From contig JAHDXO010000005.1 in the NCBI GenBank assembly GCA_023382975.1, forward strand, positions 44,876-108,875: 64,000 nt of DNA. Reading direction: 5' to 3'. Both the position numbers and the translations under genes were made by a program. Positions 11,644-57,228 of this stretch are shown here, piece by piece. Positions within the stretch are counted from its first letter, which is position 1; each line of letters starts with the position of its first letter. Source of the DNA: Pirellulaceae bacterium (GTDB lineage Bacteria; Planctomycetota; Planctomycetia; Pirellulales; Pirellulaceae). The notes beneath the pieces were generated by a model. It made no database searches. It was not told where the DNA came from and was given only the letters and a program-made list of their open reading frames with translations.

Positions 11644-11730
11644 GTAGCCGAATTCGTGAGAATTCGGATGAAATTGGACGATTCTGAATTCTCACGAATT
11701 CAGCTACGGGTCACGAATTCAACTGCGCGA
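11644..11730. repeat. Cluster of GAATTC-N4-GAATTC palindromic repeat units (REP-like). Two copies are in inverted orientation and there is a partial third.
   Basis: gtagccGAATTCgtgaGAATTCgg ... tctGAATTCtcacGAATTCagctac ... tcacGAATTCaa. The same core recurs at ~12782, ~21547, ~53858, and ~63832. Confidence 0.8.
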
Positions 11731-43396: not shown

Positions 43397-43882
43397 TCAA
43401 CATGCCGTCCGCCTTTTCTGCGCGGCCACGAATCTTTTCTGTTTTCTCCGCGGTTCGGTTTGACACGGAACGAACCTGACATAGGTTTCAAGTGCGGGGC
43501 TGAGGTGCCGAAGGCGCAGCAGTCCCGGTCAGGATGCGAGTCCTGAAAAGGCCTGTCGCCTCCGATCCTCGACAAAGGCAAACCAGTTGCAAAGCTGGGA
43601 CGCAAAGCCGAGGGCCGCTCGGACGTTCGCTCCGGGCGGCAGCCTGGCTGCCGAAAGGATAGATCGCGTTGTTCGCGGAAGTGGTGCGGTCATGGAGCGG
43701 CCGTACGAGGAAAAGAGGCTGGTGTTTCGTGTGTGTGGTAGAGGTCCGCTGGCCGCACGGCAGGCCGAGGCGTCGACAAACGTCTCGCGACCGGAGGAAC
43801 TCGGCGTCCCCTTTTCCCAGATAGCCTTCGCGGGCCGTGCTTGAATCGGCGCCGCGGACGGCGAAATCCATTGGAGGTTGTT

Positions 43883-44298: not shown

Positions 44299-45990
44299 AT
44301 GAATGCTCCGTTGAATTGGAACAGCAGGAACCTGACGCACGGTTGGCAGCGCGGCGTCACCGCGTTTTACTATGGACTGGGACTGACCGAGGCGGATTTT
44401 GACAAGCCGCAGATCGGGATCGGCGTGCCGTTGCTGGACGGGAATCTCTGCAACGTCCACGCCTACGACCTGGCTCAGCGGATCGCGGACGGTTGCCGCC
44501 GCGCGGACATGATCGGTTTTCCGTTCGGCGTGCCCGCGGTCAGTGACAACATCACGCAAGGGCACGAAGGCGGCAACGCCAGTCTTCCGTCCCGCAACAT
44601 GATCGCCAACGGGGCCGAGTGCGTGGTCAGCGCGCACGGCTACGACGCGTTGATCGGACTGCACCACTGCGACAAGAACGGTCCCGGATTCGCCATGGCG
44701 CTGGCCCGCATGAATTATCCGGGATTGCTGGTCAGCGGCGGCACGATCATGCCGGGTTGCCACCGGGGCGAGGAGATCTCGATCCTGGACGTCTACGACG
44801 CACAGGCCGCGGTCGCCGTCGGCAACATGGACCCGTCCGAAGCGGAAGAGATCCTGCGGACCGCCTGTCCCGGGGTCGGCGGTTGCGGCATTGCGGCTTC
44901 GTTCAACACCTGGGGCGTGGCCATGGAAGCCATCGGGCTGATGCTGCCCTACAGCAGCGCGATTCCGGCGATCGACGAAGCCAAGCACGAGGAATGCATC
45001 CGGGCCGGCCAAATCATGCATGGCGTGCTGCAGCAAGGACTACGCCCGCGCGACATCCTCACGCGCCGCGCGTTCGAGAACGCGGCGACGGCCATCGCCG
45101 CGATCGGCGGTTCGACCAACGGCGTGCTGCACCTGCTGGCGCTGGCTCGCGAAGCCGATGTCGAGTTCACCCTGCGCGACATGCAGGCAATTTTCCGCCG
45201 GACGCCCGTGTTGTGCTGTTTCGCCCCGCGCGGCAAGAAGACGATGGTCGACATGCACCGGATCGGCGGCACCCCGGTGTTGTTGAAGCACCTGTGGCGC
45301 GCCGGTCTGCTGGACGGCGACACCATGACCGTGGTGGGCAAGACGCTGGGCCAGGTCGCCGCCGAGGCGCCCGATCTACCCGACGACCAGCAACTGATCG
45401 TCCCGGCCGATGCCCCCTTCAAACCGTTTGCCGACGTGCAGATCTGTTTCGGCAACCTGGCGCCGGACGGCATCGTGTTCAAGGTTTCCAGCATGCAGGA
45501 GCCCCGGTTCCGCGGCGTCGCGTTGTGCTTCGACGACGCCAAGGACGTGGCCGACGCGGTCGAATCCAAGCGGATCCAGCCGGGCAGCGTCATCGTGTTG
45601 CGTTACCTGGGACCGGTCGCATCTGGAATGCCCGAGGTGTTGGTCGCATCGGCCGCACTGGCGGTTCCGGAACTGGACGGGAAAGTCGCCCTGGTCTCCG
45701 ACACCCGCGTGTCCGGCGTTTCGCACGGCGCGATCGGCGTGCATTGTGCGCCCGAGGCCGCGGTGGGGGGCGCCATCGCGCTGGTCGCCGACGGCGACGA
45801 AATCTCGTTCGACCTGCTGGCCGGCGAAGTCACGTTGCACGTCGACGACGCAGAACTCGGCCGCCGCCGTCAGCAGTGGCGGCCCATACCCCGCAAATCG
45901 CGCCGCGGTTACCTGCTGGACTTCGCCGCCACCGCCGCACAAGCCAACCACGGCTGTGTCAGCCGCATCCTGTACCCGGACTGCGCGTGA
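44299..45990 (+). CDS. ilvD: Dihydroxy-acid dehydratase (IlvD/EDD family).
   Basis: 563 aa. It has the Fe-S cluster Cys pattern (CDKNGPG...CPGVGGCG) and similarity to IlvD along the full length. Confidence 0.85.
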   Translation: MNAPLNWNSRNLTHGWQRGVTAFYYGLGLTEADFDKPQIGIGVPLLDGNLCNVHAYDLAQRIADGCRRADMIGFPFGVPAVSDNITQGHEGGNASLPSRNMIANGAECVVSAHGYDALIGLHHCDKNGPGFAMALARMNYPGLLVSGGTIMPGCHRGEEISILDVYDAQAAVAVGNMDPSEAEEILRTACPGVGGCGIAASFNTWGVAMEAIGLMLPYSSAIPAIDEAKHEECIRAGQIMHGVLQQGLRPRDILTRRAFENAATAIAAIGGSTNGVLHLLALAREADVEFTLRDMQAIFRRTPVLCCFAPRGKKTMVDMHRIGGTPVLLKHLWRAGLLDGDTMTVVGKTLGQVAAEAPDLPDDQQLIVPADAPFKPFADVQICFGNLAPDGIVFKVSSMQEPRFRGVALCFDDAKDVADAVESKRIQPGSVIVLRYLGPVASGMPEVLVASAALAVPELDGKVALVSDTRVSGVSHGAIGVHCAPEAAVGGAIALVADGDEISFDLLAGEVTLHVDDAELGRRRQQWRPIPRKSRRGYLLDFAATAAQANHGCVSRILYPDCA

Positions 45991-46037
45991 CGAGGAAGAA
46001 TGGGCTTCCTCCCAACGGGGCACGGCCGCAACCAACT

Positions 46038-46266
46038 CGTTGAACGGTAAGCCGATCGCGACTGCGCCCGAGGGCAGTTCGCATGAACACCGCGTAGTCG
46101 CCTTCGGAGGCTGCTGAAAAAGTCGTGGGGTAAGCTTCCAGCTTGCCAAATGGGGCGTCTAGGAAAGTGCGGGAATCAAAGATACGAAAACTCGGCAAGC
46201 TGGAAGCTTACCCCACCTCGCTTCTTGCCAGTATTTCAGCAGGCTCCTTCGGCTTGCCGTTTAACG
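46038..46266. repeat. Nested inverted-repeat element of about 229 bp (MITE-like). The outer imperfect inverted repeat is CGTTGAACGGTAAGCCGA / TCGGCTTGCCGTTTAACG. The inner perfect 21-bp inverted repeat is GGGGTAAGCTTCCAGCTTGCC (46127-46147) / GGCAAGCTGGAAGCTTACCCC (46194-46214).
   Basis: Read directly from the sequence. The outer arm motif recurs twice as direct repeats at 57171-57228. Confidence 0.7.
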
Positions 46267-46337
46267 AAGATGCGCGCCGCGCGCACCCTACGAACCGTGA
46301 CTCGAGCGGCCGCCTGTTGAACGTGACCGGCGCCGGG

Positions 46338-47210
46338 CTACTCGTTCTCGACGGGAATGTTCAGTTCGCGCAGTGTTTGGCGGAGCCAAGCCAGCGAGCG
46401 TTCGATCATCGGGCCGCCCTGGCCTTCGCATTCCATGCTTAGGACGCCCGTGAAGCGATGCTCGTCAAGGATCTCCAGGCACTGCCGGATGTTGGCCGCG
46501 TTGACGCCGTCGCCCAACGCACAATGGCTGACGGCGATGCCGGTTTCTTCGCCGCGGACTGCCGCGGCCAGCGATTGGCTGACATCCTTGACGTGAACAT
46601 GCGAGACCCGATGGACCAGACGGCGCAGAAAATCCACCGGATCGCGGCCGGCGATGAACGTGTTGCCCGTGTCCATGTTCATCCGCAGGTACGGGCTGTC
46701 GACGAAGTCCAGCATCTCAGCGACTCGTTCGGGATCGGTCGTGAAATAGCCGTGGACTTCGATGTTGATGATGATCTCGTAGACCTCGGCCACTTCCAGG
46801 ATCTGTTCGTAGCTGCGCCGCATCAGCGCCATCGCCTCGCCGTCGCTCAGCCCTTCCGGCTTCTTCAAGCCGTCGGTGGTGGCGATCCGGTCGCAGCCGG
46901 CCAGCTTGGCCCATTGCAGCGACCGCAGCACGTAGGGCACGCCGTACAACGGCCCGTCCTTGCCGGACAGCGGAAACGCCGCGTCAACTTGTGAAAATCG
47001 CACGCCGTAGCGGTCCATTTTCTTTCGCAGCAGCACGGGATCTTCGTACATTGCCACGTGCGGCTGATAGCCCAGGCCGTGAATCCAGCTTGCGCCGTCG
47101 ATCAAGCCGCATTCGATGAAATGGACATCATTCTGCTGGGCCCACTGCAGACACCGCTCGAAGTTCCAGTACGACGAGTTAAAGGCGTCGGTATGAAAGC
47201 CGATCTTCAT
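46338..47210 (-). CDS. Sugar-phosphate isomerase/epimerase (xylose-isomerase-like TIM barrel) family protein.
   Basis: Start is MKIGFHTDAF. Its ATG overlaps the stop of the upstream URO-D-like gene (ATGA). The ORF track's long N-terminal extension to 48047 is an antisense/GC artefact. Confidence 0.65.
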   Translation of the reverse strand: MKIGFHTDAFNSSYWNFERCLQWAQQNDVHFIECGLIDGASWIHGLGYQPHVAMYEDPVLLRKKMDRYGVRFSQVDAAFPLSGKDGPLYGVPYVLRSLQWAKLAGCDRIATTDGLKKPEGLSDGEAMALMRRSYEQILEVAEVYEIIINIEVHGYFTTDPERVAEMLDFVDSPYLRMNMDTGNTFIAGRDPVDFLRRLVHRVSHVHVKDVSQSLAAAVRGEETGIAVSHCALGDGVNAANIRQCLEILDEHRFTGVLSMECEGQGGPMIERSLAWLRQTLRELNIPVENE

Positions 47211-48238
47211 GGCAAAGTCTCCGCGCAAGAGGCAGATGAATCGAGAGCGTAACGAGTCAACGCGAGCAGGTTTTCGCGAGGCGTGCCGCGGGGCACTTCG
47301 CACCCGGCGCCGATGATGTACCGCGGGCCGGCCTCGCGGTGGCACTGGGCAACCGCCGCGGTGATCGCCTCGGGCGTGCCGTTGCGCAACAACCGAACCG
47401 GATCGAGATTGCCCAGCAACACCGGCTCCGGCCCCATCGCCGCCCGCGCGTCGGCCACGGGAACCATGAAGTCCAGGTCGACGATCTCGCAGCCCAGGCG
47501 GCCGATCGGTTCGAGGATGCGGTTGATGTTGCCGCAGATGTGCAAGCGGACTTTGCAGCCCATCTCGTGCAAGCCGTCCACCAACCGCTTCTCGTATTCC
47601 CAGACGAAGTCCCGGTAGATCTGCGGGCCCACCAGCGACGCCGCCGCGTCGCCGACGCCCATCAGTTCCACCCCGGCCTCGACCTGGGCGCGGGCGAACC
47701 GCAGTCCCATCCGCAGCACGAACTCGAACAGCTCGTGGACGAAGGCCGGGTCGTCGTAGAAGTCGAGCATCAGGGTGTTGATTCCGCGCAGATCGGCCGC
47801 CTCGGCGCACGGGCCTTCGATCCAGCCCTCGATCAACCGCCCGCCGCCACGTTCGCGAAACAACGCGGCGGCCCGCACGCGGTCGTGCATGCGTCCGCCG
47901 CCCAGCGGATCGGGAATCTCCAGACTCTTCAGCGCCGCCTTGTCTGCCAACCGGGCGTTCATTTCGTCGATCGCCGGCGGCTGGTCGTCGAACACCTGCA
48001 CGTTGGCTCCGCAGTCGGCGGCTTCGCGGGCGGGATCGGAAATGCACGAGACGTAGTCGAACCCGTACGCCTCAGCCGTCTTCTCCTGACCCTCGACCAG
48101 CACGCGGTAGTCCGTCGCGTACTGTCCGTACGGACGGCGGATGTGATCGGCGGCGAACATCATGGTGATCGGCATCAGCGGGAGTCGGTCGACCGGATGA
48201 CCCGCGATCAGCGCGAGAATGCGTTCGCGTCCGTTCAT
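47207..48238 (-). CDS. Uroporphyrinogen-decarboxylase (URO-D) family protein (MtaA/CmuA-like).
   Basis: It starts MNGRERILALIAGHPVDRLPLMP and shows URO-D-family similarity. The start position was computed from the ORF track. Confidence 0.6.
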   Translation of the reverse strand: MNGRERILALIAGHPVDRLPLMPITMMFAADHIRRPYGQYATDYRVLVEGQEKTAEAYGFDYVSCISDPAREAADCGANVQVFDDQPPAIDEMNARLADKAALKSLEIPDPLGGGRMHDRVRAAALFRERGGGRLIEGWIEGPCAEAADLRGINTLMLDFYDDPAFVHELFEFVLRMGLRFARAQVEAGVELMGVGDAAASLVGPQIYRDFVWEYEKRLVDGLHEMGCKVRLHICGNINRILEPIGRLGCEIVDLDFMVPVADARAAMGPEPVLLGNLDPVRLLRNGTPEAITAAVAQCHREAGPRYIIGAGCEVPRGTPRENLLALTRYALDSSASCAETLP

Positions 48239-57170: not shown

Positions 57171-57228
57171 GCGCGTTGAACGGCAAGCCGAAGGCGTCTG
57201 CGCCCCGCGTTGAACGGCAAGCCGCAGG
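57171..57228. repeat. Two direct copies of the 'CGTTGAACGGCAAGCCG(A/C)AGG' repeat (family 2), spaced 35 nt apart.
   Basis: gcgCGTTGAACGGCAAGCCGAAGGcg ... ccgCGTTGAACGGCAAGCCGCAGGcg. The same motif forms the outer arms of the 46038-46266 element. Confidence 0.7.

Follow-up and report, generated by a model that had tools for sequence, protein, structure and literature searches.

The window, by which we mean the whole 64-kb stretch of DNA analysed here, contains a 347-bp gap between two convergent genes, ilvD and a gene for an AP_endonuc_2/xylose-isomerase-like TIM-barrel protein, and a palindrome of 231 bp (46037–46267) sits in that gap. An exact-protein look-up of the downstream xylose-isomerase-like protein returned no record, and a BLAST search of the gap against plasmids gave no match. 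The features of the site are the following, with the type of evidence in brackets where it applies:

44299–45990, plus strand: ilvD (Pfam ILVD_EDD).
46037–46267, no strand: whole composite palindrome of 231 bp, an outer CGTTNAAC-framed palindrome around a REP doublet (inverted repeats, fold, alignment with copies).
46037–46055, plus strand: left outer arm TCGTTGAACGGTAAGCCGA, terminus of a second palindromic family (repeat search, motif count, alignment).
46058–46101, no strand: insertion in the left arm that forms an additional side hairpin, GCGACTGCG ... CGTAGTCGC (fold, alignment).
46106–46119, plus strand: left CTGCTGAA linker module, GGAGGCTGCTGAAA, which pairs with 46234–46247 (nearly invariant alignment columns).
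46125–46147, plus strand: forward REP unit, a GTGG tag plus the stem-loop GGTAAGCT-TCC-AGCTTGCC.
46148–46193, no strand: 46-nt spacer (loop) between the two REP units (moderate conservation across composite copies, orientation constant).
46194–46216, minus strand: reverse REP unit, a perfect inverted copy, followed on the minus strand by GAGTTTTCGT, a terminator-like site.
46234–46247, minus strand: right CTGCTGAA linker module, TTTCAGCAGGCTCC.
46249–46267, minus strand: right outer arm TCGGCTTGCCGTTTAACGA.
46338–48047, minus strand: AP_endonuc_2/xylose-isomerase-like TIM-barrel gene, convergent with ilvD.

The inner pair of the palindrome is a perfect 23-nt repeat, GTGGGGTAAGCTTCCAGCTTGCC (46125–46147), with its complement at 46194–46216 across a 46-nt loop. 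Around it, the middle pair (46106–46119/46234–46247) is 93% complementary and the outer pair (46037–46065/46239–46267) 79% complementary, with the right outer arm motif TCGGCTTGCCGTTTAACG corresponding to 46249–46266. An earlier note on this DNA had described a nested inverted repeat without coding capacity in the gap after ilvD, and we found it to be present and non-coding, with the sequences of the arms given correctly. The perfect inner repeat and its 46-nt loop stood as described except that the repeat is 23 nt rather than 21 nt long; the imperfect outer repeat is likewise real, with its right arm starting at 46249 and not at 46246. Both motifs exceed chance expectation: the outer one matched the window four times against 0.11 expected matches (no shuffle reached four), and the inner one twice against 0.00 expected. 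Folded as DNA, 46037–46267 reached −71.6 kcal/mol (z −8.3 versus shuffled sequence) and the REP doublet −27.8 kcal/mol; an RNA fold, a check that the note had proposed, also found the gap far more stable than shuffled sequence, with z-scores of −7.5 on the plus and −6.4 on the minus strand.

Recurrence of the outer-arm motif elsewhere had been claimed as well, and the motif count in the window bore this out with further copies at 57174 and 57208. These form two tandem direct copies (57174–57225, plus strand; 34-nt period) of the motif CGTTGAACGGCAAGCCG (GCGTTGAACGGCAAGCCG[A/C]AGGCG), with a Ser/Thr kinase gene on one side and a GH2 beta-galactosidase gene on the other. They contain no REP doublet and are related to the composite, though separate from it.

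Each inner arm consists of one REP unit of 23 nt, made up of an unpaired GTGG tag, an 8-bp stem and a 3-nt loop. In the window, two units of the same type face each other with their tags outside, the arrangement of a REPIN-type doublet. For comparison, loci were chosen from other genomes by an exact 21-mer—a choice that inflates the apparent conservation of the selected unit, not that of its partner units—and about 294 units were then collected from them with mismatches allowed, so that partner units were unbiased by the search word. Across these ~294 units, the GTGG tag was at least 92% conserved at each position and was followed by 8 nt, TCC and a further 8 nt, with no conservation beyond the 23-mer. 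The stem covaried at four pairs, and the counts for individual pairs were:

Stem pair 5/23: G-C in 202 units, C-G in 84 units.
Stem pair 6/22: G-C in 258 units, A-T in 32 units.
Stem pair 9/19: A-T in 265 units, G-C in 10 units.
Stem pair 12/16: T-A in 275 units, A-T in 17 units.
Stem pair 7/21: T.G wobble in 282 units, C-G in 10 units.

These compensatory changes argue that selection acts on the small hairpin of each unit rather than on the doublet's long hairpin alone. Each of the three main variants of the unit folds into a tag and an 8-bp stem. The conserved T.G may be a feature used in recognition. Of 127 neighbouring pairs of units, 89 were head-to-head with their tags outside, at preferred spacers of 13, 37–38 and 46 nt, and a G5-C23 unit was paired with a C5-G23 unit in 50 of these 89 doublets; units also form tandem arrays. 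REP units are predominantly extragenic, and the window copy is intergenic: 35% of units lay inside long stop-free stretches, a crude proxy for genes, versus 80% of all bases. REP clustering in Stieleria sedimenti far exceeded that in other genomes, with arrays at L093 5506–6185 and L074 5174–5815 (L numbers denote fetched loci) that include an 85-nt period repeated eight times and a 165-nt period repeated four times.

In a scan of species-representative genomes, the 21-mer GGGGTAAGCTTCCAGCTTGCC occurred in at least 112 stretches of DNA. Nearly all hosts among the matches listed were Planctomycetota, mostly Pirellulaceae, and the carriers listed there included Stieleria sedimenti, S. tagensis, S. 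magnilauensis, Rhodopirellula sp. SM50, Aureliella, Pirellula, Fuerstiella and many Pirellulaceae metagenome-assembled genomes (MAGs), often with about 8–14 loci per genome among those matches. Our source contributes one doublet of the GTGG-tagged family within the 64-kb window. MAG taxonomic labels may be wrong, and several MAGs labelled Chitinophaga or Candidatus Kuenenia (L007, L010, L013, L017 and others) carried the same REP subfamily with a common flank, CTGTTGATTTAGTC, and a common loop; the shared flank and loop suggest that these are mislabelled or mis-binned planctomycete contigs. On an unrelated metagenome contig, a REP doublet (L119 1399–1458) lay 25 nt past the stop codon of a 78%-identical homologue of the xylose-isomerase-like protein.

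To search for a linked transposase, we ran phmmer over all stop-free stretches of the fetched loci with a seed that we took to be the E. coli RAYT (YafM) sequence and that served as a probe only. This seed retrieved two ORFs, in L065 and L102, both directly bracketed by GTGG-tagged units; in L065, the RAYT ORF has a forward unit 88 nt upstream and two reverse units 6 and 44 nt downstream. Against the NCBIfam model NF047646 (REP-associated tyrosine transposase), the RAYT-like ORFs gave an E-value of 1e-20 and 74.1 bits, with a curated cut-off of 80. Pfam, including Y1_Tnp, gave no match to these ORFs, and Y1_Tnp barely detects even E. coli YafM. A database search found 221 relatives, among them proteins of Stieleria neptunia, Stieleria sp. 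ICT_E10.1, strain TBK1r, Novipirellula, Allorhodopirellula, Neorhodopirellula and Fuerstiella, many of which carry the JGI label "REP element-mobilizing transposase RayT". An alignment of 23 members showed an invariant HHH (HUH motif), WQ and Y...NPV, and the sole significant match of the family profile in the PDB was E. coli TnpA-REP (4er8; E 5.4e-6), with the HUH and tyrosine motifs aligned.

The RAYT gene was flanked by units in six of seven genomes examined (L065, L102, L197 from Stieleria sedimenti, L198 from S. magnilauensis, L199 from Fuerstiella and L201, a metagenome contig), at unit-to-gene distances of about 0–170 nt overall; in L197, L198, L199 and L201, units lay within 5–176 nt of the gene or overlapped its 3′ end. 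A near-identical unit accompanies RAYT genes in MAGs of Pirellulaceae as well as in Stieleria and Fuerstiella; the RAYT proteins there are only ~55–65% identical to the query. At Allorhodopirellula solitaria L200 2800–3900, the orthologous RAYT gene is instead flanked by a variant REP, GTAG-CCTAGGCT-TCC-AGCCTGGG, which keeps the layout and the loop but has the canonical GTAG tag and another stem; this is the REP–RAYT co-variation expected of such systems. The linkage of unit and RAYT is observed directly in related genomes and is predicted for the source genome. Since the 64-kb window holds one doublet and no RAYT homologue, copy number and cognate enzyme in the source genome are predicted rather than proven. 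Two side observations concern REP units near transposase genes. In S. sedimenti (L197 2126–4191), arrays of REP doublets with periods of ~122 and ~130 nt lie on either side of the RAYT gene, and at L043 1849–2178 a perfect 28-nt inverted pair of another REP type, GTAG-GGGCGACGC-CTG-CGTCGCCC, lies within the stop-free stretch (1836–2486) of a Y1_Tnp-type ORF (Pfam E 8.4e-6).

The GTGG-tagged family belongs to an ordinary and well-known kind of bacterial repeat. As described for GTAG-tagged REPs (PMC3733652), units of this kind have stems of 6–9 bp with loops of 2–3 nt, tolerate G-T pairs, and fall into subfamilies with complementary stem changes; they form head-to-head dimers 20–100 bp apart and prefer unidirectional and convergent intergenic regions. 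Unit anatomy, pairing and location here match these published features. With the REP/REPIN–RAYT systems of E. coli (TnpA-REP, 4er8) and Pseudomonas fluorescens, as reported (PMC3733652; PMC3116915), our family shares an imperfectly palindromic unit whose 5′ GT[AG]G tag is left unpaired, the joining of units into inverted doublets and so into long hairpins, numerous and mostly extragenic copies, units on either side of a HUH/Y1 transposase gene that is usually single, and the lack of a target-site duplication. In contrast, the planctomycete unit is unrelated in sequence to enterobacterial and pseudomonad units, its tag is GTGG and not GTAG, and the planctomycete RAYT is ~235 aa long with an extra N-terminal region, compared with 165 aa in E. 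coli.

Within the phylum, Rhodopirellula baltica is reported to carry the REP families GTAG-20 and GTAG-21 (Di Nocera et al. 2013, PMC3733652), which share the tagged stem-loop architecture with the family described here; the same survey reports a GTGG tag variant of GTAG-20 in Opitutus terrae, as well as a planctomycete genome that houses several families of REP together with several genes for tyrosine transposases. It lists the peptides RSVVLHR, RWGTTEL and SRIRQEF for intragenic R. baltica REPs, none of which the window unit can encode in any frame when translated here, so that, going by these listed peptides, the R. baltica families differ from ours. Enterobacterial BIMEs are mosaics in which two slightly different REP types alternate in orientation and combine with further conserved motifs, comparable to the mixed G5-C23/C5-G23 doublets and the conserved linkers beside the doublet here; they have no sequence relationship to our element, however, and the window copy has one unit type only. 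ERIC and Correia (NEMIS) sequences resemble the family of the outer arms (below) as long, intergenic, imperfect palindromes, which in that family span 66–230 bp and vary by internal insertion, but they show no sequence similarity to it, and it lacks the TA duplication of Correia elements. A literature search for the core 13-mer of the unit brought up one unrelated paper and nothing else, and the sequence was absent from the REP/HUH survey supplements that we checked; the family does not appear in the searchable literature. Two of its traits are mildly unusual: the unit is near-constant although the RAYTs are only ~55–65% identical to the query, and REP doublets recur inside palindromes of a second family.

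This second family supplies the outer arms. Its frame, CGTTTAAC...GTTAAACG, encloses inner arms that are variable but mutually complementary, and its terminus has the consensus CGTTTAAC-N6-GCCGAAGG. Stand-alone hairpins of 66–136 nt were found in L060 (two copies), L088, L110, L116, L071, L081 and L114. In the window, L032, L036, L085 and L110, the frame encloses the CTGCTGAA linker and a REP doublet with a 46–47-nt loop, and these composites align end to end; L045 and L112 contain partial composite copies. Four composite copies come from one MAG, BS150m-G36. The points (T)CGTTTAAC and GTTAAACG(A) mark exactly where similarity among the composites begins and ends; beyond them the copies are unrelated, and neither an ilvD homologue nor a homologue of the downstream gene was found near the other composite copies. 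Such sharp ends and unrelated flanks at non-homologous sites argue that the composite is a dispersed unit in its own right. It is asymmetric in a consistent way, one side having a short linker and the opposite side a longer one, and of all parts of the alignment the loop is conserved least. The side hairpin at 46058–46101 is missing from most other copies, whereas L085 has a comparable one in its right arm. A related module, CTG[CT]TGA...AGTC, flanks REP doublets of other subfamilies.

For the CGTTTAAC family itself we found neither a conserved unit-level hairpin nor a linked transposase among the copies examined, so that the REP/RAYT model explains the core of the composite and not its frame. 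Given these two negative results, a REP-type unit of its own and a CnGA-footed structure of class 3 TnpA-Y1 (PMC6006769), both of which we considered, are no more than possible identities for the outer motif. Separately, in L071 (2888–2973), L081 (2892–2998) and L114 (376–461), a conserved inverted sequence, GCGGTTGGCNTTGGCT, continues past CGTTTAAC; judging from this conservation, CGTTTAAC is not always a terminus and may be an internal module in that subfamily.

We consider it likely that the structure after ilvD is a mosaic non-coding REP element, in which a REPIN-type doublet core (46125–46216) is nested in a second palindrome, CGTTNAAC...GTTNAACG, and which, by analogy with known systems, was probably spread by a RAYT. 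Following the example of E. coli and Pseudomonas, a RAYT of the HUH family, encoded elsewhere in the genome, would probably recognise the units as single-stranded DNA hairpins and, as in REP–RAYT and IS200/IS605 systems, cut next to the tag. Transposition through such single-stranded hairpins would leave no target-site duplication. Both the mobilisation of the element and the presence of a RAYT gene in the source genome are predicted from this analogy. A secondary role for the two convergent genes is plausible: the hairpins, which may be transcribed as 3′ UTR elements, are predicted to end or stabilise both convergent transcripts at the site.

For annotation, this reading explains a strong hairpin signal that is not that of a riboswitch, a small RNA or a switch. 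It adds a well-defined REP–RAYT pair for Pirellulaceae and relatives, with a unit consensus, compensatory variants and a conserved T.G, and A. solitaria provides an example of a REP sequence that changes together with its RAYT. The reading further draws attention to the CGTTTAAC-framed palindromes as a second family, for which no mobilising enzyme is known. Nothing in it amounts to a new kind of biology.

An extended form of the REP element reading would treat the CGTTTAAC palindrome, the CTGCTGAA linkers, the REP doublet and the semi-conserved 46-nt loop as one distinct unit that is spread or retained whole, that targets or is selected at convergent gene ends in Pirellulaceae, and whose frame is recognised by a further enzyme or host factor. 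Under it, the near-identity of the REP unit despite a RAYT identity of ~55–65% could reflect a function at the level of the host and not mere persistence. We regard this extension as unlikely.

Quite unlikely, too, is an element kept by the host for its RNA or DNA structure, be it as a bidirectional terminator, as a stabiliser of the 3′ ends of ilvD and its convergent neighbour, or as a novel structured non-coding RNA. The very stable fold speaks for such a function, as does the setting, for the copies in the window, L032, L036 and L085 each lie between convergent long ORFs; moreover, a terminator scan picked up the minus-strand REP hairpin with the short T run that follows it (GAGTTTTCGT), and the conserved T.G would be a G.U pair in RNA. 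The earlier note had offered a large structured RNA as one of its two readings, yet Rfam 15 at the gathering threshold, run over the whole window, gave no match in the gap, and in a permissive scan of the gap the sole match by E-value was a chance miRNA hairpin (19.5 bits versus a cut-off of 77). Both strands fold equally well, as a DNA palindrome should, and a loop that is the least conserved part does not suit a functional RNA. Finally, units that occur in tandem arrays and beside a transposase gene point to a replicating element. A terminator role would in any case be an added, exapted function of the mobile repeat and not a rival to its origin.

The other reading in the note was a MITE-like element. 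As a description of a miniature non-autonomous repeat this is fair, because the family is multi-copy and dispersed, with defined ends and unrelated flanks. A classical MITE, by contrast—that is, a deletion derivative of a DDE-type insertion sequence that is mobilised in trans through the CGTTNAAC arms as its terminal inverted repeats—is very unlikely, even though a defined, non-coding, multi-copy unit of 180–230 bp with inverted termini and unrelated flanks has the outward form of one, and a DDE transposase is possible for the frame, for which no enzyme was identified. The note had proposed a check for target-site duplications, and by eye we saw none around any composite or stand-alone copy of the outer family, those in the window, L032, L036, L060, L085, L088 and L110 included. 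The inner arms, moreover, are self-folding GTGG-tagged REP units with a covarying stem, and the cognate enzyme to which they are linked in related genomes is a RAYT-type HUH tyrosine transposase, not a DDE enzyme. The conservation that continues past CGTTTAAC in one subfamily is also at odds with arms that act as termini. No transposase ORF was seen beside stand-alone copies (between the two copies in L060 there are only ordinary long ORFs, as judged without Pfam), and no autonomous transposon with the same termini was seen in 1.38 Mb of loci.

The state of the element in the source population bears on a further alternative. Four contigs from different samples (L001–L004) encode an identical ilvD protein and are identical to the window 3′ of the gene, which indicates that the element is fixed in this population. 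These contigs end at 46126, 46151, 46151 and 46178, at or inside the REP doublet, as would be expected if a repeat or a perfect inverted repeat broke the assembly graphs, and the REP element reading accounts in this way for the metagenome assembly breaks just after ilvD in this organism. Breaks at the element in four assemblies also hint at a high copy number in the source genome. A perfect inverted repeat around a short segment, at which assemblies break, might also suggest an invertible DNA switch in which recombination between the 23-bp repeats flips the 46-bp segment. We hold this to be extremely unlikely, however, as the loop has the same orientation relative to the asymmetric outer arms and linkers in every composite copy, all three of the contigs that reach the loop show the orientation of the window and hence no sign of inversion, no promoter-like site was found, and the multi-copy identity of the REP units is enough to explain the assembly breaks. 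To our knowledge, known invertible segments are all far longer than 46 bp. The spacing and arrangement of the units led us to reject CRISPR and integron attC readings.

A metagenome scan with the downstream protein returned 80 loci, none of which had ilvD nearby; it thus provided no empty orthologous site for comparison and no direct evidence of insertion of this copy. Most RAYT-encoding contigs in the protein database are only ~1 kb long, and together with the contigs that end at the doublet this makes it appear that REP repeats fragment assemblies systematically.

Further structured elements of the window lie outside the gap. At 11644–11707 lies a second REP-type doublet of another family, GTAG-CCGAATTC-GTGA-GAATTCGG plus an inverted partner, with 25-nt arms that are 14 nt apart and 92% complementary, and a third partial copy follows at 11711–11729. 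This type was absent from all fetched loci and, as far as R. baltica GTAG-21 can be deduced from the published description, is closer to that family than the ilvD element is. Another element is a c-di-GMP-I-GGC riboswitch aptamer on the plus strand at 43568–43656, which scored 71.8 bits against a gathering score of 59; downstream of it come a 50-aa ORF and a Flp/Fap pilin gene, both of which precede ilvD.
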